A stretch of DNA of 64,000 nt from Patescibacteria group bacterium (GCA_025999275.1 AP024680.1:244728-308727); one strand, 5' to 3'. Shown: positions 3,540 to 52,590, numbered from the stretch's first letter. Notes: a model not told the origin generated them from the sequence alone. Made by a program: numbers and translations.

Positions 3540-3858
3540 CCTTGGAGAGGGAGCAATCGCCCCGCTTTTTGCGGGGAGGAAAGTCCGGACAGCAGAAAGG
3601 CAGGATGCGCCGCGCAAGCGGTGACCCGAAAGGGCTGGTCCCCTCTTGTTAAAGGGGCGCTGGGTGAATTGACACCCTGCGAGAGCAACAGAGACGAGTC
3701 TTGTCTTTTCCTAAAGAAAAGATAAGGGTGAAACGGGCAATCCCCTCCGCTGCAACCTGCGAATTGGACGTTTGAGGTGCCTTTCCCGATGTCCTAAGGC
3801 AGGGCATTAGATAGATGATTGCTTAGAAACAGAATCCGGCTTACCACTCTCCAAGGCG
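3540..3858 (+). ncRNA. rnpB: RNase P RNA, bacterial type A-like and compact
   Basis: GGAAAGTCCGGAC (P4 5' strand), CGCGCAAGCGGTGA, AAGGGTGAAACGGG and ACAGAATCCGGCTTACC (P4 3' strand) are all present. P1 pairs ttggagag (3542-3549) with ctctccaa (3847-3854). The locus is GC-rich within an AT-rich genome. Confidence 0.85.
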
Positions 3859-3862
3859 CCAA

Positions 3863-3939: not shown

Positions 3940-4635
3940 GTGAAGAATATGGGAGGAATCGGTTATTTGGGTAATGTCTTTGCTGAATCGGCCAGAAGCG
4001 TTTGGTCTTTGTTTTGGGGTGCTTCTCTTAACATCTTTTGGGCGGTTGTTGTCTTTTTGGTCGGTTTGGCGGCAGCCTCTTGGGTTCAGAAATTGGCTAT
4101 CAAGTTTTTTGAGCTGACAAAACTTGAGAAGTTTTTGTCAAAGACAGGAATAGATAAACTTCTTGACAAGGCTGAAATAAAGCTTGGTGTGGGTGATTTG
4201 ATAGCTATTTTCTTAAGATGGCTTGTTGTACTTACCTTTTTCTTAGCCGCCATTGATATTTTGGGGCTAAACACTGTTTCTCAGGTTCTATTTTCTATCT
4301 TAGGCTATGTACCAAGCATTGTTGCGGCTATTTTTGTTTTTGTTTTGGGCTATTTGGTGGCCAACTTGATTGAGGGTTTGGTAAAGGGGGCGGTTGCCTC
4401 GATTGATAAAAACATTGCCAGGCCGCTTTCTGTTCTTTCAAGGTGGCTCATTCTTTTAATTGCCTTTTTTGCCGCTCTTGACCAATTGAAGATAGCCCAA
4501 GGTTTGATTAACACTTTCTTTCAAGGCCTAACTTATACTTTTGTTTTGGCTGTAGGTTTGTCTTTTGGTCTTGGGGCAAAGGATTTGGTATCGAGAATTT
4601 TGAATGATTGGTACGACAAGTTAAATAAGAAGTAA
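3940..4635 (+). CDS. Membrane protein with two MscS-like conserved TM-helix repeats
   Basis: A repeated hydrophobic module, FWxxVVFLVGLxxAxWV then LRWLVVLTFFLAAIDILGL, resembling the conserved TM helix domain of mechanosensitive-channel-related proteins. An SD sequence (ggagagggggtg) precedes the start. Confidence 0.45.
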   Translation: MKNMGGIGYLGNVFAESARSVWSLFWGASLNIFWAVVVFLVGLAAASWVQKLAIKFFELTKLEKFLSKTGIDKLLDKAEIKLGVGDLIAIFLRWLVVLTFFLAAIDILGLNTVSQVLFSILGYVPSIVAAIFVFVLGYLVANLIEGLVKGAVASIDKNIARPLSVLSRWLILLIAFFAALDQLKIAQGLINTFFQGLTYTFVLAVGLSFGLGAKDLVSRILNDWYDKLNKK

Positions 4636-4637
4636 TT

Positions 4638-6167
4638 ATGCTTGCCAAAATTGTATCAGGGGCCACTATTGGCCTTGAAGGTTGTTTGGTTGAAGTTGAA
4701 GTAGACGTGCCGGGGGAAGGCCTTCCGGCATTTAATATTGTTGGCCTTCCTGACAAGGCGGTTGAAGAGTCAAAAGAAAGGGTTAGATCTGCCCTTAAAA
4801 ATTCGGGCGCAGATTTTCCTGGTGGACGAGTCACGGTAAACTTGGCTCCTGCTGATTTACCAAAAGTTGGCCCTGCCTACGATCTCCCAATAGCCCTTGG
4901 CCTAATGGTTGCTTCAGGCCAAATTCCTAATTTAACCTCTGAATCTTTGTTTTTTGGCGAGCTTTCTCTTGATGGGAATTTAAGACACACAAACGGGGTA
5001 TTGCCAATAGTTTATCTTGCTCGTGAGAAGGGGATAAAGAAGGTTTTTATTCCCAAGGTGAACCAGGAGGAGGCCTCAATTGTTTCAGGAGTTTCTATTT
5101 ATCCAGTTGAGAATTTAATCAGTCTGGTTAGGTTTTTTATGGGCACTTTTGAAATCAAGCCAGTGGGGAAGACTGATTTATCGGTTCTTCTTAAAAATAC
5201 ACCCGCAGAGTTTGATTTTTCTGAAATTATAGGGCAAGAACATGCCAAAAGGGCAATGGAAATAGCAGCTGCTGGGTCGCACAATATTTTTATGAAGGGA
5301 ACACCTGGATCTGGAAAAACAATGTTAGCGCGCGCTTTGCCTGGCATTTTGCCAAGATTAACAGAAGATGAAGCTTTGGAAGTTACCAAAATTTATTCGG
5401 TTACTGGCAATTTATCATCAGGCCAGTCAATTGTAACAACCAGGCCTTTTCGAAGCCCACATCACACTACCAGTAGAGTTGGCTTGATTGGCGGAGGCTC
5501 GAATTTAACTCCAGGTGAAGTTTCTCTTGCGCACCGAGGGGTTTTATTTTTGGACGAATTTCCGGAATTTCCAAGAAATGTTTTGGAAAGTTTACGACAG
5601 CCATTGGAGGATGGAAAGGTGACAATCTCAAGGGCAAAAGGGTCGGTTACCTACCCCGCTTCTTTTCTTTTGGTTGCCGCCGCCAATCCCTGCCCTTGCG
5701 GCTATTATGGGGATCCAAAAAGAGTTTGCAAGTGCTTGCCCGGCCAAATCGCGAGGTATCAAAAGAGAATTTCAGGGCCAATTCTAGACAGAATTGATAT
5801 TCATATTGAAGTGCCTTCAGTTGAAACGCAAAAACTGGTTTCAGAGGCAAAAATTAAACCTGAGTTTTCAAAAGAGATTCAATCACGTGTTCAGAAGGCA
5901 AGAGAAAGACAAACCAAAAGATTTAAAGGAACAAATTTGAAGTCAAATTCAGAAATGGGAACAAGGGATGTTAAAAAATATTGCCCTCTTTCGGATGATT
6001 GTCGCACAATATTAAGAAGTGCTATTGCAACTTTGAATTTGTCTGCTCGAGGTTATTTTAAGGTTATAAAAGTTGCAAGAACAATTGCCGATTTGGAAGG
6101 ATCTGAAGAAATTTCAGTCAACCACATAGCAGAAGCTCTGCAGTACCGAATAAAAGACGAATCTTGA
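4638..6167 (+). CDS. YifB/ComM family Mg-chelatase-like AAA+ ATPase
   Basis: N-terminal Lon-like/ChlI domain. Walker A GTPGSGKT and Walker B LFLDEFPEF are present, with a C-terminal Mg chelatase subunit-like domain. Confidence 0.85.
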   Translation: MLAKIVSGATIGLEGCLVEVEVDVPGEGLPAFNIVGLPDKAVEESKERVRSALKNSGADFPGGRVTVNLAPADLPKVGPAYDLPIALGLMVASGQIPNLTSESLFFGELSLDGNLRHTNGVLPIVYLAREKGIKKVFIPKVNQEEASIVSGVSIYPVENLISLVRFFMGTFEIKPVGKTDLSVLLKNTPAEFDFSEIIGQEHAKRAMEIAAAGSHNIFMKGTPGSGKTMLARALPGILPRLTEDEALEVTKIYSVTGNLSSGQSIVTTRPFRSPHHTTSRVGLIGGGSNLTPGEVSLAHRGVLFLDEFPEFPRNVLESLRQPLEDGKVTISRAKGSVTYPASFLLVAAANPCPCGYYGDPKRVCKCLPGQIARYQKRISGPILDRIDIHIEVPSVETQKLVSEAKIKPEFSKEIQSRVQKARERQTKRFKGTNLKSNSEMGTRDVKKYCPLSDDCRTILRSAIATLNLSARGYFKVIKVARTIADLEGSEEISVNHIAEALQYRIKDES

Positions 6168-6210
6168 ATGCGGCTTTGCATATCTTGCCCTGTCAGGTTA
6201 GAATTGCTAA

Positions 6211-7338
6211 ATGAAGAAGAGATTTTTGATAATTTTGGTTTTTTTCTTTATTCTGGGTTTTTTGGCTTATTTTAGGTTTGCCTCTAAAGATAATATTTCT
6301 CCCTTGCCAAAATTTAATAATCCACCCTCCCCTGCCGAAGTTGGAAATTTGCAAATTGCAGTAATTGCCTCTGACCTTGATACTCCTTGGGCTATAGCTT
6401 TTCTGCCTGATGGAAATATGATTACCACTGAAAGAAAAGGGTCTGTGCGTCTAATAGATAAAAAGGACGGTCTTCTTGAGAACCCAATATTTGTTTTTGA
6501 TGATGTTGTTGAAAAAGGTGAAGGAGGCCTATTGGGAGTTGCTGTTCATCCGAATTTTGGAGCTAATGGCTTTGTTTATTTTTATTACACCTATAAAAGT
6601 TCTAGTAATGTATTTAATAAAGTGGTGAGAATGGTTTTTAAGGATAATAGTTTGATTTTTGATAAAGTGATAGTTAACGATATTCCTGCCTCGCAAAATC
6701 ACAATGGTGGCAGAATCAAATTTGGCCCAGATGGCTATCTTTATATAACCACTGGAGACGCAGAAAAACCTTCTTTGGCTCAGGATAAAAATTCTCTGGC
6801 TGGGAAAATCCTCAAGGTTGATGATGATGGTAATCCGGCAACTGGCAATCCTTTTGATAACCTTGTTTATTCTTATGGTCATAGAAATCCGCAAGGGATT
6901 ACTTGGGATGAGAATGGAACTCTTTGGGCAACCGAGCATGGCCCTTCTGGTCTTGAAACGGGAAATGATGAGATTAACAAGATTGAACCTGGCAAAAACT
7001 ATGGCTGGCCTGAAATTAGAGGAGCAGAAACCAAAGATGGGATGGTTAGTCCAATTCTTGAGTCGGGAAAAGGGAATACTTGGGCACCATCAGGTATTGC
7101 CTATTTTGAAGGCAAGCTCTATTTTGGGGGTTTAAGGGGGGAAGCTTTGTATAGAGTTGTTTTTGTTGATGAAAAACCAAAGCTTGAGACTTTGTTTAAA
7201 GGGGAATTTGGAAGAATTAGAGATGTTGTTTTGGGTCCTGATAATATGCTTTATATTACAACTAGCAACAAAGATGGCCGCGGCAGGCCAGGAGAAAAAG
7301 ATGACAAAATTATAAGAATAAATCCAAGAGATCTTTAA
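6211..7338 (+). CDS. Soluble sugar/sorbosone dehydrogenase family beta-propeller protein, membrane-anchored
   Basis: N-terminal TM helix. DTPWAIAFLPDG, HNGGRIKFGPDGYLYITTGD and GHRNPQGITWD are motifs typical of PQQ-dependent aldose sugar dehydrogenases (YliI-like). Confidence 0.75.
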   Translation: MKKRFLIILVFFFILGFLAYFRFASKDNISPLPKFNNPPSPAEVGNLQIAVIASDLDTPWAIAFLPDGNMITTERKGSVRLIDKKDGLLENPIFVFDDVVEKGEGGLLGVAVHPNFGANGFVYFYYTYKSSSNVFNKVVRMVFKDNSLIFDKVIVNDIPASQNHNGGRIKFGPDGYLYITTGDAEKPSLAQDKNSLAGKILKVDDDGNPATGNPFDNLVYSYGHRNPQGITWDENGTLWATEHGPSGLETGNDEINKIEPGKNYGWPEIRGAETKDGMVSPILESGKGNTWAPSGIAYFEGKLYFGGLRGEALYRVVFVDEKPKLETLFKGEFGRIRDVVLGPDNMLYITTSNKDGRGRPGEKDDKIIRINPRDL

Positions 7339-7901: not shown

Positions 7902-9188
7902 ATGGCGGCAAAAATTGATATTTTTGAGAAGCTTTCAAGGCGGATAAAAAAGTTTGCAAGAAAAATTTTCTTTTCTTTTATTTCCTATATTAAAAAGCTT
8001 ATTTTCCCTATTTATCTTTTCCCCATTAAAATTTTCACCTACAGTCTTTATTATTCGATTAGGTTTGCGTTTAAATTTATTTTTACCTTTTTTTCTTTGA
8101 TTTTTGAGACAATTATTTTTCCTTTCAAAAGCCTTAAAAATTTTTTAAAGTCAATCTTCTTTCTTGCGATTTTTGTTTACCTTTTGTTTTCAGTCCTTGT
8201 CATAGCTGATTATTTGAGCAGACAATACGGCAACTTTAGAAAGATTTTCTGTGATTTGGGAGTTAAAGAGAGATTAAGAAAATCGGTTGTCAGAGTAATT
8301 GGCGGTTATTCTCAAGGTTCCGGATTTTTTATTTCTCCAAACAGGGTTGTTACAAATTTCCATGTTGTTGATGGAGAGATTGCGCCCAAAATTATTCTTC
8401 CAGACGGCAGAATGATAATTCCTGAAAAGTTTCTTGGCAACAAAGAAGCCGATATTGCTGTTATCTTTACAAAAGAGGAATATCCACAACTAGTTTTGCC
8501 AGTGAATCAAAGAGACATTCTTGAAAAGATAGCCAAAGGCGAAGTTGGTTTCGAAAATTATCAATCAACTTTATCGGAAGACGCCATTGTCTTTGCCGCT
8601 GGATATCCATTGGGCACAGAAATTAAAGGAAACCCTACAATTTTAAAGGGAAGATTTTTAGATTACAGAATCAGCTCTCCGATTGTGTACATACAAACAG
8701 ACATCACTTTGGTTGAGGGGATGAGCGGAGGTCCTTTTACTGATGTTTGCGGAGAGGTGGTCGGCATTAACACTAAAGGAGTTGGGGGAATGTCTTTTTT
8801 TCTTTTTTTAAGAGATGCTTGGAAATATATAGACGATCAAAAAGGCGAGCTTCTTTCTGATAAAGATATTAGAAAAATTGCTTTTGATCCTTCAAAATCC
8901 CCCCAAGAGGCGGTCTCTGCCTTTTATGCCTATATCAGCGCAAGAAGGATGGAAGACGGTTTTTCTCTTTTGAGTGAAAAATATAAACAGAAGACAAATC
9001 TTGAAGAATGGTCTAGTCGTTTTAGGGATGTAATTGATATCCAAGTTTGGAAAGTAGAGCTTGAGGATAAAAAGAAAAACAGAGTTTTTGTTAAGTTTTC
9101 AACCAAAAACTGGACAAATCAGAATGTTGAAATACATCATTACGAAGGTACTTGGGAAGTTGTTTTGGAAGATGGGTTTATAAAATGA
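7902..9188 (+). CDS. Trypsin-like serine protease with N-terminal TM region and C-terminal domain of unknown function
   Basis: Catalytic His at GSGFFISPNRVVTNFHVV, Asp at ADIAVI, Ser at EGMSGGP. These are chymotrypsin-fold S1 motifs. Confidence 0.65.
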   Translation: MAAKIDIFEKLSRRIKKFARKIFFSFISYIKKLIFPIYLFPIKIFTYSLYYSIRFAFKFIFTFFSLIFETIIFPFKSLKNFLKSIFFLAIFVYLLFSVLVIADYLSRQYGNFRKIFCDLGVKERLRKSVVRVIGGYSQGSGFFISPNRVVTNFHVVDGEIAPKIILPDGRMIIPEKFLGNKEADIAVIFTKEEYPQLVLPVNQRDILEKIAKGEVGFENYQSTLSEDAIVFAAGYPLGTEIKGNPTILKGRFLDYRISSPIVYIQTDITLVEGMSGGPFTDVCGEVVGINTKGVGGMSFFLFLRDAWKYIDDQKGELLSDKDIRKIAFDPSKSPQEAVSAFYAYISARRMEDGFSLLSEKYKQKTNLEEWSSRFRDVIDIQVWKVELEDKKKNRVFVKFSTKNWTNQNVEIHHYEGTWEVVLEDGFIK

Positions 9189-9254: not shown

Positions 9255-9638
9255 TTGATTTTTAATATGGAAAGAAATCTTTGTTTGGAATCAGGATGCA
9301 AGGGATATTGCTGTGAGGATATAGATATTGAGGTTACAGGTTGTGAGAGAACTAGGCTTTTTCCAAAGGCAAAAGCAGTTTCTTCAATTAAACAGCTGGC
9401 AGAAATTAAAGAATCAGGAAATGTCGGTGTGTTTTATACAAAATATGAAAGAGAGGGTTTGGAAGGAGATTTTTATATTGTTTGTATAAACGGACCCTGC
9501 CCCAATAGACTTGAGGATGGCAGTTGTGCAAAGCATAGTGAGCGCTCTTATGCAGCAAGAAATTTCAAAATTGGCAGCCGAGAGTGCAATGAGATTCGCC
9601 TCTCCCACGGCCTTCCTACAATTGCAGATGAGATTTAA
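9255..9638 (+). CDS. Cys-rich hypothetical protein with a YkgJ-type CxxCxxCC putative Fe-S/zinc-binding motif
   Basis: ESGCKGYCCED motif plus additional Cys residues (CINGPCPN, GSCAKH). Confidence 0.4.
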   Translation: MIFNMERNLCLESGCKGYCCEDIDIEVTGCERTRLFPKAKAVSSIKQLAEIKESGNVGVFYTKYEREGLEGDFYIVCINGPCPNRLEDGSCAKHSERSYAARNFKIGSRECNEIRLSHGLPTIADEI

Positions 9639-9720: not shown

Positions 9721-11523
9721 ATGGCGGGAGATAACAATAACTCAGGTATCGATAAAACAGAGCTTGTCTGGCCCGGCAAGCGCAAAGAGGTTGAGCGGGT
9801 AGAGCTGCCGTTTCAGACGATTGAGACGATTAACCTACCGCGCGGTACTCGCCAAGATGAACTATTTGGAGACAAAACAGAAGGATGGAAGAATCGGCTC
9901 ATTTGGGGCGACAATCTTTTAGTGATGGGTTCGCTTCTCAAAGAGTTTGCCGGAAAAATAAACCTTATTTACATTGATCCGCCTTTTGCTACCGGAGATG
10001 ATTTTTCTTTTGAAGTACAGATTGGTGATGGTATTGAAATTACCAAAGAGCCATCGGCAATGGAAGTAAAAGCCTACCGCGATACTTGGGGCAAAGGTCT
10101 TCAGTCATATCTTCAAATGATGTACGACCGACTGGTTTTGATGAAAGAACTTTTAGCGGACGATGGCTCAATTTATGTACATTTAGACGCTACTGTTGGA
10201 CATTATGTTAAAACAATAATGGATGAAATTTTTGGGAAGGAGAATTTTCGCCGTCAAATTATATGGGTAATGACTGGAATAGCTGGGTATAAGGGTTTGG
10301 TAAATAATTATGTTCGTGGGCACGATCTTATTCTGTACTACACTAAAACTAGCAATCACGTCTTTAATAAAACCTACATTCCATATTCCGAAAAACAGCT
10401 TGCACGCTTTTCAGGCATTGATGAAAAAGGGCGACGATATAAACCAATCACAAAAGATAGGAGACTTTATTTAGATGAGGCAAAAGGTATTCCAATAACA
10501 GATGTTTGGTCAGATATTGTAGGTTTTCATACCATCGTTAACGCCCCGGAAGATGTTAAATATCCCACTCAAAAACCGGAAAAATTACTTGAACGGATAA
10601 TTAAAACATCTTCAAATGAAGACGATCTTGTCGCTGACTTTTTCTGCGGCTCCGGTACCACTGGTGTAGTGGCGGAGAAACTGGGCAGGCGATGGATTAT
10701 GTCCGATCTCGGACGCTACGCTATCCACACTACTCGCAAGCGGCTTTTAGATATGGGTGCCAAGCCTTTTATTGTGCAAAATCTTGGCAAATACGAGCGC
10801 CACCGCTGGGCAAAACTCAATGGAAAATACAAGGACTACATCAAATTTATTTTAGAGCTTTATCACGCCGAGCCGGTGGATGGCTTTACTCACCTGCATG
10901 GCAAGAAAGATAAGAGTTTTGTCCGCGTAGGCAGCGTAGACGCGCCAGTTACGCTTTCGGAAATCCGTGAGGCGCTCTCCGAATGTAAAGAAAACAATAT
11001 CAAAAAGTTGGATGTGCTTGGCTGGGAGTGGGAAATGGGCTTGCATGATTTGGTCAAAGAAGAGGCGGAAAAATATGGGGTCAAACTAGCTACTTTACAG
11101 ATTCCGAGGGAAGTAATGGAATTATCTGTCGCAGACGCCCAAAAACATGATATTCAATTTTACGAATTGGCGTATTTGGAAGTTGAGGTGAAAGTTGAGG
11201 GCAAGCACGCAACCATAACGCTCAAAGATTTTATTATTCCCAATCCGGAGCTCTTGCCGGAAGAAGTGAAAGGTAAAGTCAAAAGCTGGAGCGACTTTAT
11301 TGACTACTGGGCAGTGGACTGGATGTTTAATCAGCACGAAGAAGAAACAGAAGAAGATGACACCTTCCACAATATGAACCAGCGCTACCGCACCCGCAAG
11401 GAGCCAAAGTTGGAGGTTTCAATGAGCTATGAGTATAAAAACAAAGGTCGATATAACATCCTTGTGAAGGTTATTGATATTTTTGGAAATGATACGACGA
11501 AGCTAATTGAAGTAAAAGTATGA
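9721..11523 (+). CDS. mod: Type III restriction-modification system methyltransferase (Mod), beta-class N6A/N4C DNA methyltransferase
   Basis: Motif IV LIYIDPPF precedes motif I VADFFCGSGTTGVVA, the beta-class order typical of Type III Mod. A variable target-recognition region lies in the middle. GC is high relative to the flanking sequence. The stop overlaps the next start (ATGA). Confidence 0.8.
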   Translation: MAGDNNNSGIDKTELVWPGKRKEVERVELPFQTIETINLPRGTRQDELFGDKTEGWKNRLIWGDNLLVMGSLLKEFAGKINLIYIDPPFATGDDFSFEVQIGDGIEITKEPSAMEVKAYRDTWGKGLQSYLQMMYDRLVLMKELLADDGSIYVHLDATVGHYVKTIMDEIFGKENFRRQIIWVMTGIAGYKGLVNNYVRGHDLILYYTKTSNHVFNKTYIPYSEKQLARFSGIDEKGRRYKPITKDRRLYLDEAKGIPITDVWSDIVGFHTIVNAPEDVKYPTQKPEKLLERIIKTSSNEDDLVADFFCGSGTTGVVAEKLGRRWIMSDLGRYAIHTTRKRLLDMGAKPFIVQNLGKYERHRWAKLNGKYKDYIKFILELYHAEPVDGFTHLHGKKDKSFVRVGSVDAPVTLSEIREALSECKENNIKKLDVLGWEWEMGLHDLVKEEAEKYGVKLATLQIPREVMELSVADAQKHDIQFYELAYLEVEVKVEGKHATITLKDFIIPNPELLPEEVKGKVKSWSDFIDYWAVDWMFNQHEEETEEDDTFHNMNQRYRTRKEPKLEVSMSYEYKNKGRYNILVKVIDIFGNDTTKLIEVKV

Positions 11524-12437
11524 GTGGAGTTAATTTTCACTTTCTAGATGTAGGTGACGGCGACTGTACGATTGTTGATTTTCCGGAGCGTGTTGTGAAA
11601 AGTACCGGCAAGACAAAGAATGCCCGGGTTATGATGGTAGATATACACCATCACGATGATCATAACGACTATGAGCATGTCATAAATTACTACAAACAGA
11701 ATATTGGCGACCGTTCTATTTTTAGATTCATTGCTACTCATCCACAGAAAGATCACATTAAAGGCATAAAACAATTGTTTGAAGATTATGGTATAGAGAT
11801 TTTGAACTTCTGGGATTTAGAGCACGACTTTGAACCAGATAAAGGTGACGAATATTGGGAGGATTACAAAGATGATTGGGAAAAATATTGCGAGATTAGA
11901 GTAATGAAAGACGAAGAAGGGCTTTGCGTTAGACGCTATTGGGATCACCAAAGTGGCATACAATATTGGGACGAGGACAGAATAGAGATTCTTTCACCAT
12001 CAAAGGAGTTGTACCAATTTGTTCACTATACTGAAGAAGGCGAAAAAAGAAGCAAAGAAGAAATCGGAGAATTAATTAACAACATGTCTTATGTTCTGCT
12101 GGTCCGCATCAACAACTTGAAAGTGTTGCTTGCTGCAGACGCAGAGGAGAAGTGCTGGGAATACATATTGAAGAAACATAAGAAGAAAATTGAGAATATT
12201 GATATTTTGAAGGCCGCTCACCATGGTCGGTTAAGTGGATTTCATGAAGAGGCGGTAAAAATTATGAGGCCAAAGCACATCGTTTTTTCTTGCTCTTCGG
12301 ATACCGATCATGAGCACGGAGCGGAAGATGAATACAAAAAAATAGTGCCAGATGCAGAATTTTATAAAACATATCATTACGGCACCATTGTCCTAAATTG
12401 CGATTTTAACGGAAATATAACCCATATACGAGCATGA
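11520..12437 (+). CDS. Metallo-beta-lactamase-fold hydrolase, ComEC/Rec2 C-terminal-domain-like (first paralog)
   Basis: HFLDVGDGDCTIV (beta-lactamase-fold DxGxGD entry), ATHPQKDH (HxHxDH-type motif), LKAAHHGR (C-terminal His pair) and a His-rich HHHDDHNDYEH segment. ATGA overlaps with both neighbours. Confidence 0.55.
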   Translation: MSGVNFHFLDVGDGDCTIVDFPERVVKSTGKTKNARVMMVDIHHHDDHNDYEHVINYYKQNIGDRSIFRFIATHPQKDHIKGIKQLFEDYGIEILNFWDLEHDFEPDKGDEYWEDYKDDWEKYCEIRVMKDEEGLCVRRYWDHQSGIQYWDEDRIEILSPSKELYQFVHYTEEGEKRSKEEIGELINNMSYVLLVRINNLKVLLAADAEEKCWEYILKKHKKKIENIDILKAAHHGRLSGFHEEAVKIMRPKHIVFSCSSDTDHEHGAEDEYKKIVPDAEFYKTYHYGTIVLNCDFNGNITHIRA

Positions 12438-13249
12438 CAAGAATTCACATTTTTGATGTTGAACACGGGGAATGCAATGCCATAGAGACACCTTCTGGCG
12501 ATTTGGTATTGATAGGTGCTGGCCATAATTCCTCTACAAATTGGCGACCATCAAACTGGTTGCGACAGCGCAATCGAAGACCGCACTGTCTTGTTTTAAG
12601 CAATCTAGACCGAGATCATCTTTCTGATTTGGCGAATTTTGAACCCCATATCCGTCCAGTAAGTATTAAGTACAACAGCTATATTAATCCCGACTGGGCG
12701 GAAAGTAAAAAGATCGAAGAAAGTGGCGAGGTACACGAGGGGGTTCAGACAGCTCTGCATTGGATACGAAATGTTTTCACTGGCTCGCCAATATCTCCGA
12801 ACTATGGGATGGAAATTGCTTATTTTCATCATTCACCGACAAATTTTCAAGATACAAATAACTTGAGTGTTGTTACTTTTGTTGCTTACAACGGGGTTGG
12901 TGTAATGTTCCCAGGAGACATTGAAACCGCTGGATGGAGAGAATTTTTAACAAATCAGACATTTGTAAATTGTTTGAGGCGAACAAGGATTTTAATCGCT
13001 TCTCATCATGGACGAGAAAGCGGTTATTGTCGCGAAGTGTTCAATTACTGTGCTCCTGATGTAGTGATTATTTCTGATAAGCCGCTAATGCACGAGACAC
13101 AAAACCATAATCTCTACGCCCAGCATTGTAGTGGCTTAAACTCCAACGGTAATCTTAGGAAAGTATTAACTACCCGCAACGATGGTAAGCTTACGATTGA
13201 AATTCCGGCGATTGGAAACTATACCGTTTATATCAATCAAAATTATTGA
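12434..13249 (+). CDS. Metallo-beta-lactamase-fold hydrolase, ComEC/Rec2 C-terminal-domain-like (second paralog)
   Basis: FDVEHGECNAIETPSGDLVLIGAGH, SNLDRDH and IASHHGRESG repeat the motif arrangement of the preceding ORF. Confidence 0.55.
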   Translation: MTRIHIFDVEHGECNAIETPSGDLVLIGAGHNSSTNWRPSNWLRQRNRRPHCLVLSNLDRDHLSDLANFEPHIRPVSIKYNSYINPDWAESKKIEESGEVHEGVQTALHWIRNVFTGSPISPNYGMEIAYFHHSPTNFQDTNNLSVVTFVAYNGVGVMFPGDIETAGWREFLTNQTFVNCLRRTRILIASHHGRESGYCREVFNYCAPDVVIISDKPLMHETQNHNLYAQHCSGLNSNGNLRKVLTTRNDGKLTIEIPAIGNYTVYINQNY

Positions 13250-13252
13250 GCT

Positions 13253-13870
13253 ATGGAACAAAAAGTTTTCTCAAAATTTAATGTATATGACCAAATCGGC
13301 TACCTGATGGTTGGCGCACTTACCCTATTACTGCTTGTTTTTAACACAGTTTATTTCTTTCAAGTTGCTGTCCCCTCTTTCAGTTTAGATACTTTCTTAA
13401 TCTGGTTCATTGTCGCTTATTTTGTAGGACATTTTATGCAGGGAGTTGCAAATCTTATCAACGAGATAAAATTTTTGCGTTTTTTGGTTCCGGAAAACAA
13501 AAAAGATTTTGATGACAAGCAAAAAGAAATATTGCAACAAGCAAAAGAATATTTTGGATTACATAAACAAGATGACAGCAGATTATGGAATCTATGTTAT
13601 ATGTTAGCCAGCGCCAAAGATATAACTGGTCAAGTGCAAGCATTTAACTCCTATTACAGCTTGTATCGGGGTTGGCTCATCGTGTTTATTTTGGAGTCAT
13701 TGTTTTTACTCTATTTTATTTTTTCGGCTTTCAACTTGAACACTTTGCTGTTATTTTTGGCGAGCATATTTTTTTCTGTCATATTTTATCGGCGTTCAAA
13801 GCGCTTTTGGAGCTATACGAAGGATAAGGTTTTAGAAACTTTTGTCATTGTTAAAACTTTGAATCTATGA
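13253..13870 (+). CDS. Four-TM membrane protein of unknown function in the Mod-Res operon
   Basis: The start is 3 nt after the preceding stop and the stop overlaps the res start (ATGA). Two N-terminal and two C-terminal TM helices flank a charged cytoplasmic segment. Confidence 0.5.
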   Translation: MEQKVFSKFNVYDQIGYLMVGALTLLLLVFNTVYFFQVAVPSFSLDTFLIWFIVAYFVGHFMQGVANLINEIKFLRFLVPENKKDFDDKQKEILQQAKEYFGLHKQDDSRLWNLCYMLASAKDITGQVQAFNSYYSLYRGWLIVFILESLFLLYFIFSAFNLNTLLLFLASIFFSVIFYRRSKRFWSYTKDKVLETFVIVKTLNL

Positions 13871-16356
13871 GTAAATCATCTAAACAACAATCACTACTTC
13901 CTCTCGTCCGCGCCCTACAGCTGGCGGTGGCGGCGTGGCGTGAGGGTGGATATAAAGAAGGCACGAGTGAGACGACCCGGCGGCTTTTGGAGTGGTGGTT
14001 TATGGAAGATCACGAGCTTGCAGATGGAAAAAGTTTTGCTTTTTGGCAAGCGCAAAGAGAAGCAATTGAACATCTAATTTATTGCTATGAGGTTTTGGAA
14101 GCGCGCAGTTTATACAAACTTGCGCAACAGCTTGATGTGAGGATTCCAATTGACCCAAGCGCCGACAAATGGGCAAAATACGCTTTCAAAATGGCGACCG
14201 GCTCGGGCAAGACAATGGTAATGGCGATGACAATTGCCTGGTCGTATTTTAACGCGACAAAAGAAAAGCGGGAAGATTTTACAAAACATTTTGTGCTTAT
14301 TGCGCCAAATCTGATTGTGCTTGATCGCTTATTCGGTGATTCAAAGAATCCGGAATTCTTTGAAGGCGCAATTTTCAAAAAATTTCCTTTCATTCCGCCG
14401 GAATGGTTATCAGATTTTCAACTTGATGTCATTGGTCCAGACGAGGAACGGGAAGCTACCCGTCCGGCAACGCTTTATCTCTTGAACTGGCAGAAGTTTA
14501 TTGAGCGCGAAAATGGCGAAGCAGAAAATCCGGTACAGGATATTTTAGGACCAAAGCCGCCGAGCGAAATTGCCGTTTCTTTGGCAAAGCTAAAAGACAG
14601 ATTGTCTCATCTTTCAAATGTGATGGTGATAAATGACGAAGCGCATCGTGTATGGAGCGAAGAACTCGTTTGGTATAAGGCGATTGAAAATCTCCACGAG
14701 ACCGTAGGACTGATGTGCCAGCTTGATTTTTCAGCAACGCCGAAAGATCAAGACGGGCGGCTTTTTACACATATTATTACCGATTACAATTTGGGCACGG
14801 CGATTGAAGACAACATTGTTAAGCGTCCCAAAATTGCCGAACTTGAGAATGTACCTGAAATTGAAAGTGAGAACGCGGCAGAAAAATACCGTGTTCAAAT
14901 AGATGCTGGTATTAAACAGTGGAAAGTTATGAAAAAGACGCTTGAGAAAGCCCAGAAAAAACCGGTTATCTTTTTTGTTACCGAAGATAACACGGCCGCT
15001 GACGAGGTTGCTGAGTATCTTCAAACTTTTCCTGAGTTTAGCGGCGATAAAACTTTGACGATTCATTCCGGCAGAACTAAAGATCAGATTGCCGAAAAGG
15101 ATTTGGCTAAAGCAAGAAAGGCGGCGCGCGAGATTGATTCACTGGATAATCCTCATAACGCTATTGTTTCTGTTTTGATGTTGCGCGAAGGGTGGGATGT
15201 TAAAAATGTAGTTGTGGTTGTGCCCTTGAGATCCTTCAGCGCCAAAGCCAAAATTTTTCCGGAACAAACCTTGGGAAGAGGTTTACGAAAAATGTGGCCA
15301 GATCGACAAGAATTAGTTGAAGAATTGATTGTTATAGAGCATCCGGAATTTCATGATTTAATTGAGCAGGCACTTGCCGAACAGGGCGTAAAAGTGGAAT
15401 TTACTTCACTTGAAGAAGCGTATACTCCACCTATTATTATTCAGGTCGAGGAAGGCAAAGAAAAATTTGATATAGAAGTGCCGATGCTTTCCGGTGGCTT
15501 GACGCACTCGGTTAAAGGGATTGAAAAGTTGCAGCCAAGCGCCCTAGAAAAAGGATTGTTCGATTATGACTCTCTGCAGGCTCGGGATGTAACTTTGCGC
15601 AAAGTTGATATGCTGACGAAAAAAGAGGAAGCCAGAGAAGTACTGGAATTTCCGTACGCGGACAATCCGCAAATGTATATTGCGAGCATTACCAACGCGG
15701 TTTTGCGATTTGCGAGAATTCCCGGACACTTTGATAAAGTTGTGCCGCAAGTCAAGGAGTACATCTCGAAGCACCTGTTTGATAGAAAGGTGGATATTGC
15801 TAATCTAGAAACTTTGAAGAAACTCAATCATCCAAAAGTACGCGGCGCAATTATCTCCGTTTTTGTTGATGCTATTAATAATTTAACGATTGTATCGGAG
15901 GAAATGAGGCTTGAGGAACGGAAAACTCGAGCGTCAGAAATTAAACCATTCCCGTGGACAAAACTTGCAGTGGCAGCGCAAAAGTGCGTCTTGAATTTTA
16001 CACCGGTTGATAACGATTTTGAGGCGAAGTTTGTAAAATTTCTCGATGGAGCAGGCGATGTTGAAGCTTTTATCAAAAATGAAACAAGGACTGTAAATCT
16101 TAAAATTCCATATATCGCAAAGGACGGGTTTTTACGTCGCTATATTCCAGACTTTATCGTCAAAACGAAAGATGGTATCGTGATTGTAGAAACAAAAGGA
16201 CGAGAGGATGTTGATGTTGCGGCAAAGGATTTACAGGGCAGACGCTGGGTAGAAGAAATTAGCAAGCGAACCAGAACTAAGTGGATTTTCTTGCGTGTTG
16301 ATCAAAAAGAATTTGAAAAGTCGAGGTATAGTAATTTTTCAGAATTGACAGTATAA
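13867..16356 (+). CDS. res: Type III restriction enzyme Res subunit (SF2 helicase with C-terminal PD-(D/E)xK nuclease)
   Basis: Walker A MATGSGKTMVMA and DEAH box VINDEAHRV. C-terminal nuclease motif DFIVKTKDGIVIVETKGRE. The length and domain order fit Type III Res. Confidence 0.8.
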   Translation: MSKSSKQQSLLPLVRALQLAVAAWREGGYKEGTSETTRRLLEWWFMEDHELADGKSFAFWQAQREAIEHLIYCYEVLEARSLYKLAQQLDVRIPIDPSADKWAKYAFKMATGSGKTMVMAMTIAWSYFNATKEKREDFTKHFVLIAPNLIVLDRLFGDSKNPEFFEGAIFKKFPFIPPEWLSDFQLDVIGPDEEREATRPATLYLLNWQKFIERENGEAENPVQDILGPKPPSEIAVSLAKLKDRLSHLSNVMVINDEAHRVWSEELVWYKAIENLHETVGLMCQLDFSATPKDQDGRLFTHIITDYNLGTAIEDNIVKRPKIAELENVPEIESENAAEKYRVQIDAGIKQWKVMKKTLEKAQKKPVIFFVTEDNTAADEVAEYLQTFPEFSGDKTLTIHSGRTKDQIAEKDLAKARKAAREIDSLDNPHNAIVSVLMLREGWDVKNVVVVVPLRSFSAKAKIFPEQTLGRGLRKMWPDRQELVEELIVIEHPEFHDLIEQALAEQGVKVEFTSLEEAYTPPIIIQVEEGKEKFDIEVPMLSGGLTHSVKGIEKLQPSALEKGLFDYDSLQARDVTLRKVDMLTKKEEAREVLEFPYADNPQMYIASITNAVLRFARIPGHFDKVVPQVKEYISKHLFDRKVDIANLETLKKLNHPKVRGAIISVFVDAINNLTIVSEEMRLEERKTRASEIKPFPWTKLAVAAQKCVLNFTPVDNDFEAKFVKFLDGAGDVEAFIKNETRTVNLKIPYIAKDGFLRRYIPDFIVKTKDGIVIVETKGREDVDVAAKDLQGRRWVEEISKRTRTKWIFLRVDQKEFEKSRYSNFSELTV

Positions 16357-16793: not shown

Positions 16794-17432
16794 ATGGAAA
16801 ATTTTAGATTTGAATTGAAAGGAAAAACATTGGTAATTGTTGACTGGGCGAATGTTTATGGTTGGTTTGAAAAATTGAAATGGGAAATTGACGAGAAGAA
16901 GCTTTTTAAATATCTTAAAAGTTATTCTCCAATAAAAGAAATTCGTTTTTATTTTGGAGTTGAGAAAGGCAATAAAAAATCAGAAGAGTTTCAGAAAAGG
17001 ATTAAGAAAATTGGTTATATTTTAGTTTCCAAAGAAGTTAAATGGGTGCCGGTAACACTTGATAGAACTCATTTTAAAGAATTTTTAAGTAAGCTTTTTT
17101 TACTGGCAAATATTTTAGAATCTTCTAACTCAAAAATTGCCAATCTTTTAAGACAATTACCTAAAAATCCAATTTACAGGAGGAAATGTGATTTTGATTG
17201 TGAGATTAGTATAGATGTGATGAAAAATCTAAATAATTATGATGGCTTTATATTGTTTAGCGGCGATGGCGATTATGCCGCTTTGATAAAAGAAATAATC
17301 AATAACCGAAAACAAGCCATAGTTGTTGCTTTGAAAAACTCAATGGGGAAAGAATATACAGATATCAAAAAGGGATTGTTTATTTGCAATGTTAAGAAGT
17401 TTAAGAAGTTTATTAAAAGAAATTCCCGGTAG
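16794..17432 (+). CDS. NYN-domain (LabA-like PIN nuclease) protein
   Basis: VIVDWANVYGW and ILFSGDGDYAALIKE, acidic residues arranged as in NYN/LabA nucleases. Isolated between two long non-coding stretches. Confidence 0.6.
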   Translation: MENFRFELKGKTLVIVDWANVYGWFEKLKWEIDEKKLFKYLKSYSPIKEIRFYFGVEKGNKKSEEFQKRIKKIGYILVSKEVKWVPVTLDRTHFKEFLSKLFLLANILESSNSKIANLLRQLPKNPIYRRKCDFDCEISIDVMKNLNNYDGFILFSGDGDYAALIKEIINNRKQAIVVALKNSMGKEYTDIKKGLFICNVKKFKKFIKRNSR

Positions 17433-52417: not shown

Positions 52418-52488
52418 TGCCCGGTCGTCTAATGGTAGGACACAGCGCTCTGGACGCTGGAATCGGGGTTCGAATCCCTGCTGGGCAG
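52418..52488 (+). tRNA. tRNA-Gln (anticodon CTG). CCA not encoded.
   Basis: Manual cloverleaf: acceptor tgcccgg/ctgggca, D-arm gtct-aatggta-ggac, anticodon arm cagcg-CTCTGGA-cgctg, T-arm cgggg-ttcgaat-ccctg. Confidence 0.85.
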
Positions 52489-52590
52489 CAAATTCTTCGC
52501 CAAGCCTCCAGGATTGTATGCGGCTCTGAAATCAAAATGGTTGTTAGTAGTTTGTAGTGGACTGAACCTATCTCACTATTATGATATCCA

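Follow-up and report, generated by a model that had tools for sequence, protein, structure and literature searches.

A putative PDC-M48-like cassette at the mod-res junction within a Type III restriction-modification operon from a Patescibacteria genome

The 64-kb stretch of DNA analyzed here (64,000 nucleotides, AP024680.1:244728-308727; hereafter the window) comes from a metagenome-assembled genome of Patescibacteria, within the Candidate Phyla Radiation (CPR). At positions 9721-16356 its + strand encodes a restriction-modification (R-M) operon of Type III in which mod and res are 2.3 kb apart, with three genes between them. Two of these encode proteins of the metallo-beta-lactamase (MBL) fold, MBL1 and MBL2, and the third a small membrane protein with transmembrane (TM) segments, here called TM. 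We think it probable, with modest confidence, that this is a functional Type III operon whose mod-res junction is a cargo slot, and that the slot here holds a separable three-gene cassette, an extended variant of the phage defense candidate PDC-M48, as a second-line module. An earlier note on this sequence had read the operon as a Type III-derived composite in which the inner genes are part of the R-M machine. That reading does not hold up well against the cassette standing alone in three other loci, insert-free relatives in Legionella and a Kazan bacterium, and five unrelated cargo sets found at the same junction, and one defense module embedded in another is the better reading.

The five open reading frames (Table 1) lie exactly where the earlier note had placed them, and the tight coupling it described is borne out, with one correction: it had counted five junctions, and there are four, all of them tight. 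Stop and start codons overlap as ATGA at Mod/MBL1, MBL1/MBL2, and TM/Res, and MBL2 and TM are separated by a 3-nt gap. Between 9.7 and 16.4 kb a terminator scan of the + strand returned a single weak terminator-like site, within res. Promoter and terminator scans of the operon were uninformative, with match counts no better than those of shuffled sequence, so it is the overlaps alone that point to co-transcription. One transcript would then carry all five genes, and cargo and R-M genes would be co-expressed and co-inherited.

Table 1. Features of the window, with the operon first and other features after it
Feature	Position	Strand	Size or score	Description
mod	9721..11523	+	600 aa	Beta-class DNA methyltransferase of Type III; makes up the 5' side of the R-M frame
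MBL1	11520..12437	+	305 aa	ComEC-like MBL-fold protein; cassette gene 1, the variable one
MBL2	12434..13249	+	271 aa	ComEC-like MBL-fold protein, PDC-M48B family; conserved core of the cassette
TM	13253..13870	+	205 aa	Small 2+2-TM membrane protein, Csx27-like; obligate MBL2 neighbor
res	13867..16356	+	829 aa	Type III restriction subunit, SF2 helicase and C-terminal PD-(D/E)xK nuclease; 3' side of the R-M frame
Trypsin-like serine protease	7902-9188	+	428 aa	Two genes upstream of mod; hydrophobic multi-TM N-terminus, MarP/HtrA-like
Small Cys-rich open reading frame	9255-9638	+	127 aa from TTG	Between protease and mod; ATG at 9268 the likelier start; sub-threshold DUF6413 match
NYN-domain protein	16794-17432	+	212 aa	About 440 nt downstream of res; PADLOC NYN 4e-8
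RNase P RNA, bacterial class A	3541-3859	+	109 bits
tRNA-Gln(CTG)	52418-52489	+

Both subunits of the frame are Type III-like, as had been noted, and both look intact and functional from their motifs. Along its whole length Mod matches the PADLOC model MTase_III (6e-118), and it also matches Pfam N6_N4_Mtase (2e-43). Its motifs stand in the order of a beta-class N6A/N4C methyltransferase, which a Type III Mod requires: motif IV (DPPY/F) precedes motif I (FxGxG), the target-recognition region lying in between, with DPPF at residue 86 upstream of FCGSG at 308. In alignments with relatives, identity is 75-96% over its N- and C-terminal parts and falls to 18-47% in the target-recognition region at the center. 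Res has the SF2 helicase motifs and C-terminal PD-(D/E)xK nuclease expected of a Type III restriction subunit: it matches Pfam ResIII (7e-16), carries GSGKT at residue 112 and DEAH at 257, and has IPD761...VE775TK777 in its C-terminal part, with weak TnsA and NERD matches at residues 745-806. NCBI labels an identical protein "type III restriction endonuclease subunit R."

A Type III enzyme is a Mod2Res complex whose ATP-dependent cleavage requires two inversely oriented unmethylated sites. Like classical Type III systems (EcoP15I, EcoP1I, and those with a BPTD_3080-like Res), the window has a beta-class Mod upstream of an SF2 and PD-(D/E)xK Res on one strand in a coupled operon. It differs from them in that three genes split mod and res and in that Res stays below the cut-off of the NCBIfam BPTD_3080 model (281 bits, cut-off 800). 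The strict mod-res adjacency by which Type III systems are recognized is thus absent from the window, and it is present in the insert-free relatives from Legionella and Kazan. In the plasmid collection, relatives of Res and of MBL2 are all distant, with at most 37% identity.

The mod-res junction holds different genes in different relatives. Mod and res overlap by 4 nt in Legionella pneumophila (Res 60% identical to that of the window) and by 1 nt in a Kazan bacterium (Res 56% identical), and both junctions are insert-free. Elsewhere the same place is taken by unrelated cargo, mostly of defense type: a 582-aa defense-type ABC ATPase matching mad3, AriA, PtuA, and GajA in loci L173 and L174 (Res 92%); a Schlafen/AlbA_2-HATPase protein, its Schlafen domain matching pAgo-associated models, in L175 (Res 84%); a 151-aa protein bearing the HEPN-like motif RNAACH, together with a 3-TM protein, in L171 (Res 84%); a zinc-ribbon protein plus a 2-TM protein in L172 (Res 61%); and a DUF3800 protein in L170 (Res 45%). 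The first cargo gene overlaps the Mod stop codon by 4 nt in 4 of the 5 cargo types, as Res itself does in Legionella, and follows an 18-nt gap in L170. In the alignments, Mod is conserved to its last residues and Res from about residue 8. No direct or inverted repeats were found around the cassette, and a transposon-like insertion was rejected on that ground. Conserved flanks without repeats fit an exchange of cargo by recombination, which would take place between the conserved 3' end of mod and the conserved 5' end of res.

To follow the cassette outside the window, we examined 160 loci that encode MBL2 relatives in genomes and metagenomes, 138 of them with enough flanking sequence. The order mod-MBL-MBL-TM-res, which the earlier note had described for the window, recurs in L003 (Saccharibacteria), L091, L094, and L164, and in part in L001 and L105. 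L001 is a 6.4-kb contig binned as a Methanosarcinales archaeon, with MBL2 94%, TM 90%, and Res 84% identical to those of the window, a similarity that reflects either cross-domain transfer or a binning artefact. The ratio of nonsynonymous to synonymous substitution rates (dN/dS) is 0.03-0.09 for MBL1, MBL2, and TM, the reliable values being those of the window-L001 pair (dS 0.44-0.64), since dS is saturated in the window-L164 pair. This is similar to the 0.06-0.10 obtained for Res among close relatives, a range that does not include the window-L001 pair. Purifying selection acts on MBL1, MBL2, TM, and Res, which are all the genes that could be tested, and these ratios indicate that the cassette genes are not decaying.

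Such recurrence, whole or partial, in at least 6 other loci from different phyla is also what one would see if the Type III enzyme had the MBLs and TM as subunits or as obligate partners and all five proteins were needed for restriction, an arrangement that might work through membrane tethering at the DNA entry site or through processive DNA degradation after Res nicks. The three ATGA overlaps and the 3-nt gap, the similar purifying selection on cassette genes and Res, and the fact that ComEC-like MBL domains work on DNA at the membrane all agree with an integrated machine of this kind. We nevertheless regard it as quite unlikely, because the parts come apart in nature. The trio MBL1-MBL2-TM is found with neither Mod nor Res in Methylacidiphilum caldifontis (L081), in Syntrophus (L082), where it lies beside TIR and phospholipase D (PLD) genes, and in L165, where it lies beside a HaeII R-M system. 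Insert-free operons occur in relatives whose Res is 56-61% identical, and unrelated cargo occupies the same place in relatives whose Res is 84-92% identical. MBL1 is itself exchangeable: in operons that share Mod, MBL2, TM, and Res with the window at 61-87% identity, MBL1 has just 27-33% identity to its counterpart in the window, and Syntrophus carries a third MBL1 type. The target-recognition region of Mod is hypervariable, and since it is not the same from one five-gene locus to the next, the cassette does not go with a single specificity. In two further loci one side of the frame is missing from view, with no Res downstream in L084 and no Mod upstream in L085, each on a contig too short to show the opposite side. 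In the tree of MBL2, embedded copies are interspersed with non-embedded ones and fall into two separate groups.

Neither MBL protein has a match in a Pfam search. With PADLOC models both fall to PDC-M48B, MBL2 at 1.3e-53 (PDLC04674) and MBL1 at 2.6e-21 (PDLC04673), and MBL1 additionally matches LmuA-MBL (6e-12), RTasMBL (5e-11), and Avs1a (9e-6), the MBL components of Lamassu, DRT, and Avs1. The AlphaFold models are confident (pLDDT 92 for MBL2 and 90 for MBL1), and the top match to a solved structure is for both the beta-lactamase-like domain of ComEC, 9ic4 (MBL2, E 6e-14 and TM-score 0.74; MBL1, E 5e-16). The second-best fold match is the phosphorylcholine esterase Pce, nucleotide phosphodiesterases are among the weaker matches of MBL1, and beta-CASP RNases match only weakly. 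The ComEC/Pce-like fold matches include 9ic4, 2bib, and 1wra. In profile searches of PDB sequences with both MBLs, ComEC MBL domains were the sole matches. A total of 1314 MBL2 homologs were found. The two proteins of the window are related, as the earlier note had it, though as distant paralogs (BLAST, 32% identity over 73 aa).

The motif set of ComEC (DVGQGD / THPDADH / SADIE / PHHGS) has its counterparts in MBL1 (LDVGDGDC / THPQKDH / AADAE / AAHHGR) and in MBL2 (FDVEHGEC / SNLDRDH / PGDIE / SHHGR). In the alignment of the MBL2 family N57, D59, D61, H62, H191, and H192 are invariant and D162 is conserved in at least 90%. The departures from the ComEC motif, Q76 in MBL1 and N57 in MBL2, are conserved inside their own subfamilies, and for this reason do not look like decay. 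Together with the dN/dS values above, this speaks against the MBLs being degraded remnants.

The hydropathy of TM gives a 2+2 layout of transmembrane segments, in agreement with the four-TM protein described in the earlier note. Its match to Csx27 is full-length but weak with PADLOC (4.4e-6) and reaches 16.9 bits with the NCBIfam model, where the cut-off is 65. Of the 138 loci with sufficient flank, at least 100 have a small same-strand protein with at least 2 TM segments directly next to MBL2. These membrane partners form several sequence clusters: among 92 membrane proteins adjacent to MBL2, 28 match Csx27 (best 1.9e-14), 16 match PDC-M48A, and 9 match another TM model associated with type VI-B. 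Csx27 itself is an accessory of type VI-B1 CRISPR systems, and its original description reports none outside type VI-B loci. TM shares with it the small four-TM form and the full-length weak match to its hidden Markov model, and differs in its surroundings, which hold MBL2 and Res as neighbors and no Cas13b or CRISPR array.

The earlier note had set the operon apart from DISARM, BREX, Dnd, and Druantia, and no PADLOC match to any of these was obtained. It had also not recognized the gene content as any described defense system, and here the result is different, since MBL2 beside a small membrane protein is the PADLOC candidate PDC-M48. PDC-M48 is one of 145 untested phage defense candidates recovered by "guilt-by-embedding" from gene cassettes nested within BREX, DISARM, and Type I R-M, and corresponds there to the two-gene cassette CAS_00157; the survey took in Hma, BREX, DISARM, and Type I systems, and Type III R-M was not surveyed (Payne et al. 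2024, bioRxiv 10.1101/2024.01.29.577857). The name PDC-M48 is absent from the main texts in the literature we searched; the origin of the candidate is given in a supplement.

Like PDC-M48, the window has an MBL-fold protein directly beside a small membrane protein, in a cassette nested in another defense system. TM is equivalent to component A in position and in its 2+2-TM layout, and sister loci of the same MBL2 family have true PDC-M48A partners. The window departs from the candidate in having a TM that resembles Csx27 rather than PDC-M48A, in having a third, interchangeable gene (MBL1) where PDC-M48 has two genes in all, and in its host system, which is Type III R-M. Because MBL2 belongs to PDC-M48B, has a membrane neighbor, and has sister loci with PDC-M48A, we regard the MBL2-TM pair as a variant of this catalogued and typically embedded candidate. 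In six loci (L002, L004, L012, and L088-L090) a relative of MBL2, at most about 73% identical, is paired with a membrane protein of PDC-M48A type next to a divergently oriented, distantly related DNA methyltransferase of about 510-620 aa, a second and different methylase association of the cassette.

Three further systems with related MBL domains were considered as possible homes for the window proteins, and membership was rejected for each. In ComEC/Rec2 the MBL domain is fused to a polytopic competence domain and an N-terminal OB fold. The MBLs of the window are free-standing, score 22-27 bits against TIGR00361 (cut-off 190), and have no match to Pfam Competence, which excludes them from the ComEC/Rec2 channel. 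In the trypsin-MBL module (Hachiman-MBL/HamMAB and variants of Avs1/Avs2, Lamassu, and DRT), the MBL has been demonstrated to be an autoinhibited DNase. The trypsin-like protease of the module forms a fusion with the sensor, is encoded beside the MBL, and co-evolves with it. The window shares with this module a ComEC/Pce-like MBL effector, through the matches of MBL1 to LmuA-MBL, RTasMBL, and Avs1a and the common structural neighbors ComEC and Pce. It differs in its partners, a membrane protein and a second MBL, with no trypsin domain fused to the cassette or conserved beside it. The serine protease two genes upstream of mod has weak PADLOC matches to protease-type LmuA and RT-Protease. It is membrane-anchored and MarP/HtrA-like, and a scan of 163 loci, among them L094 with its complete set of five genes, turned up no homolog; on these grounds the window was not assigned to the trypsin-MBL module. 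MBL1 also has two inserted basic and Ser/Thr-rich loops at residues ~22-35 and ~172-185 (VVKSTGKTKN and EGEKRSKEE), which are shared with its closer relatives and missing in more distant homologs, and which recall the two protease-cleaved autoinhibitory "KSS" loops of trypsin-MBL DNases.

The third system, 6A-MBL (Iyer et al. 2006, Table 1, row 6a), was later reported to be anti-phage in P. aeruginosa. It has a "specialized" MBL of the same broad family, and in a PADLOC scan of 98 proteins flanking MBL2 relatives, 7 were E1-E2(-JAB) proteins. Domain and PADLOC scans found no match to E1, E2, or JAB among the five genes or their neighbors, and with this partner missing and a score of 30 bits against the NCBIfam 6A-MBL enzyme model (cut-off 220), membership was rejected. 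On the Agrobacterium plasmid pAtCFBP6625b (L177, 2795-6807) an E2-E1-JAB protein (761 aa) is followed by a 2+2-TM protein (260 aa) and then an MBL. 6A-MBL-type loci can thus include a membrane partner of the same kind, which suggests that TM and MBL form a shared effector pair.

The constancy of the TM-MBL pairing, the most conserved feature of these loci, also admits a reading in which TM is the effector, a pore or toxin, and the MBLs are phosphodiesterases that hydrolyze a small nucleotide signal and so keep TM off, by analogy with MisC and MisB of type II Metis. Metis type II likewise has a hydrolase alongside a TM effector and relies on DNA methylation, nucleotide phosphodiesterases occur among the fold matches of MBL1, and several MBL2 relatives lie beside the divergent methyltransferases described above; a signal-degrading role would give the methylase neighborhood a functional reason. 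In sequence and in fold, however, it is the ComEC DNase domain, and not small-molecule phosphodiesterases, that gives the best matches, and related defense MBLs are demonstrated DNases. The likeness to Metis is one of analogy, and we hold this reading to be very unlikely.

The cassette and the other cargo could instead be addiction-type or non-defensive mobile modules that ride on a selected R-M system and play no role in immunity. Embedding confers a selfish linkage benefit (Payne et al. 2024), PDC-M48 is without a known defense phenotype, and the interleaving of embedded and free copies in the MBL2 tree indicates mobility. This too appears highly improbable to us, given the company the cassette keeps. 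Other cargo of the slot fits defense families (AriA, PtuA, GajA, and mad3 for the ABC ATPase and pAgo-associated models for the Schlafen domain), MBL2 relatives also stand beside E2-E1-JAB proteins, as in 6A-MBL, a system that is defined by this arrangement and reported to be anti-phage, and free-standing copies lie among TIR, PLD, and R-M genes.

Under the embedded-module reading that we prefer, the membrane partner would hold, anchor, or regulate MBL2. From their homology to ComEC and the trypsin-MBL effector, MBL2 and the exchangeable MBL1 are predicted to be DNases that lie latent until triggered to degrade DNA, perhaps when the R-M enzyme fails or is inhibited, as for PrrC in EcoprrI. Infection would then be aborted, or restricted DNA cleared. 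The anticodon nuclease PrrC, which lies in the Type I operon EcoprrI and is kept latent by the R-M enzyme, is the textbook example of an embedded back-up. A second line of defense is the function we infer for the cassette. Both are accessory effectors nested among R-M genes and co-inherited with them. They differ in the host system (Type I for PrrC, Type III in the window) and in the effector (an ABC-ATPase/anticodon nuclease for PrrC, MBLs and a membrane protein here), and a guard role for the cassette is a hypothesis; L173 (Res 92%) does hold a defense-type ABC ATPase in the slot. A bolder form of this idea, which we put forward tentatively and consider unlikely, is that the whole clade acts as an integron-like platform, in which the conserved mod 3' and res 5' arms swap abortive-infection cargo and each cargo is a guard that fires when phage anti-restriction disables Mod2Res. 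If so, the platform would be the Type III counterpart of PrrC/EcoprrI, and membrane proteins of the Csx27-like kind would serve generally to regulate ComEC-like DNase effectors.

Several observations weigh against an embedded PDC-M48 variant. PDC-M48 is itself only a candidate defense system, and the TM of the window matches no PDC-M48A model, just Csx27, and that weakly. Each MBL departs from the canonical motif at one predicted metal ligand (THPQKDH in MBL1, SNLDRDH in MBL2), and catalysis is no more than plausible. With a phosphorylcholine esterase as the second-best fold match of the modeled structures, DNA may not be the sole substrate. An integrated system, too, would be expected to show tight translational coupling and a five-gene order that recurs across phyla, and the census of the slot rests on just ~15 loci.

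Embedding of one defense module in another has been described for Type I R-M, BREX, DISARM, and Hma. In the literature that we searched, the coverage of which is incomplete, we found no relevant paper on genes that separate mod from res in Type III systems, which is weak evidence, and neither a multi-cargo slot at a Type III mod-res junction nor a two-MBL variant with a Csx27-like protein. It is therefore embedding in Type III that we did not find described, R-M embedding itself being known. The present case extends "guilt-by-embedding" to Type III R-M through a single junction, conserved on both sides, with at least 6 alternative contents in close relatives. It brings three families that would otherwise be orphans within reach of experiment (PDC-M48, the second MBL, and the Csx27-like membrane proteins) and ties them to defense-associated MBL effectors, among them the trypsin-MBL of Hachiman, a demonstrated DNase. 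It also allows one to ask cleanly whether a host system guards the modules embedded in it or whether the two are simply linked. A CPR genome of ~0.8 Mb would here be spending 6.6 kb on layered defense.

The flanks of related operons carry further genes of this kind. Directly 3' of res, L171 (11499-11999) and L172 (11490-11990) encode a conserved 166-aa protein with a PD...E.K-like motif (IPDLLV...FIEVK), which is not in the window and could belong to the frame as another accessory. In L094 a restriction gene of GmrSD type (Type IV; 4532-6235) ends 3 nt before mod, and the PADLOC candidate PDC-S23 (Fic/RhuM) is the gene that precedes mod in L171. These R-M frames sit in small defense islands.

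A weak NYN-like match also lies upstream of the five-gene locus in L094; the NYN-domain gene of the window lies on the other side of the operon (Table 1). The G+C content of the window is higher (0.36-0.43) over ~3-16 kb than elsewhere, where it is ~0.25-0.39 and mostly 0.29-0.38, and the stretch of higher G+C comprises the operon plus housekeeping genes.

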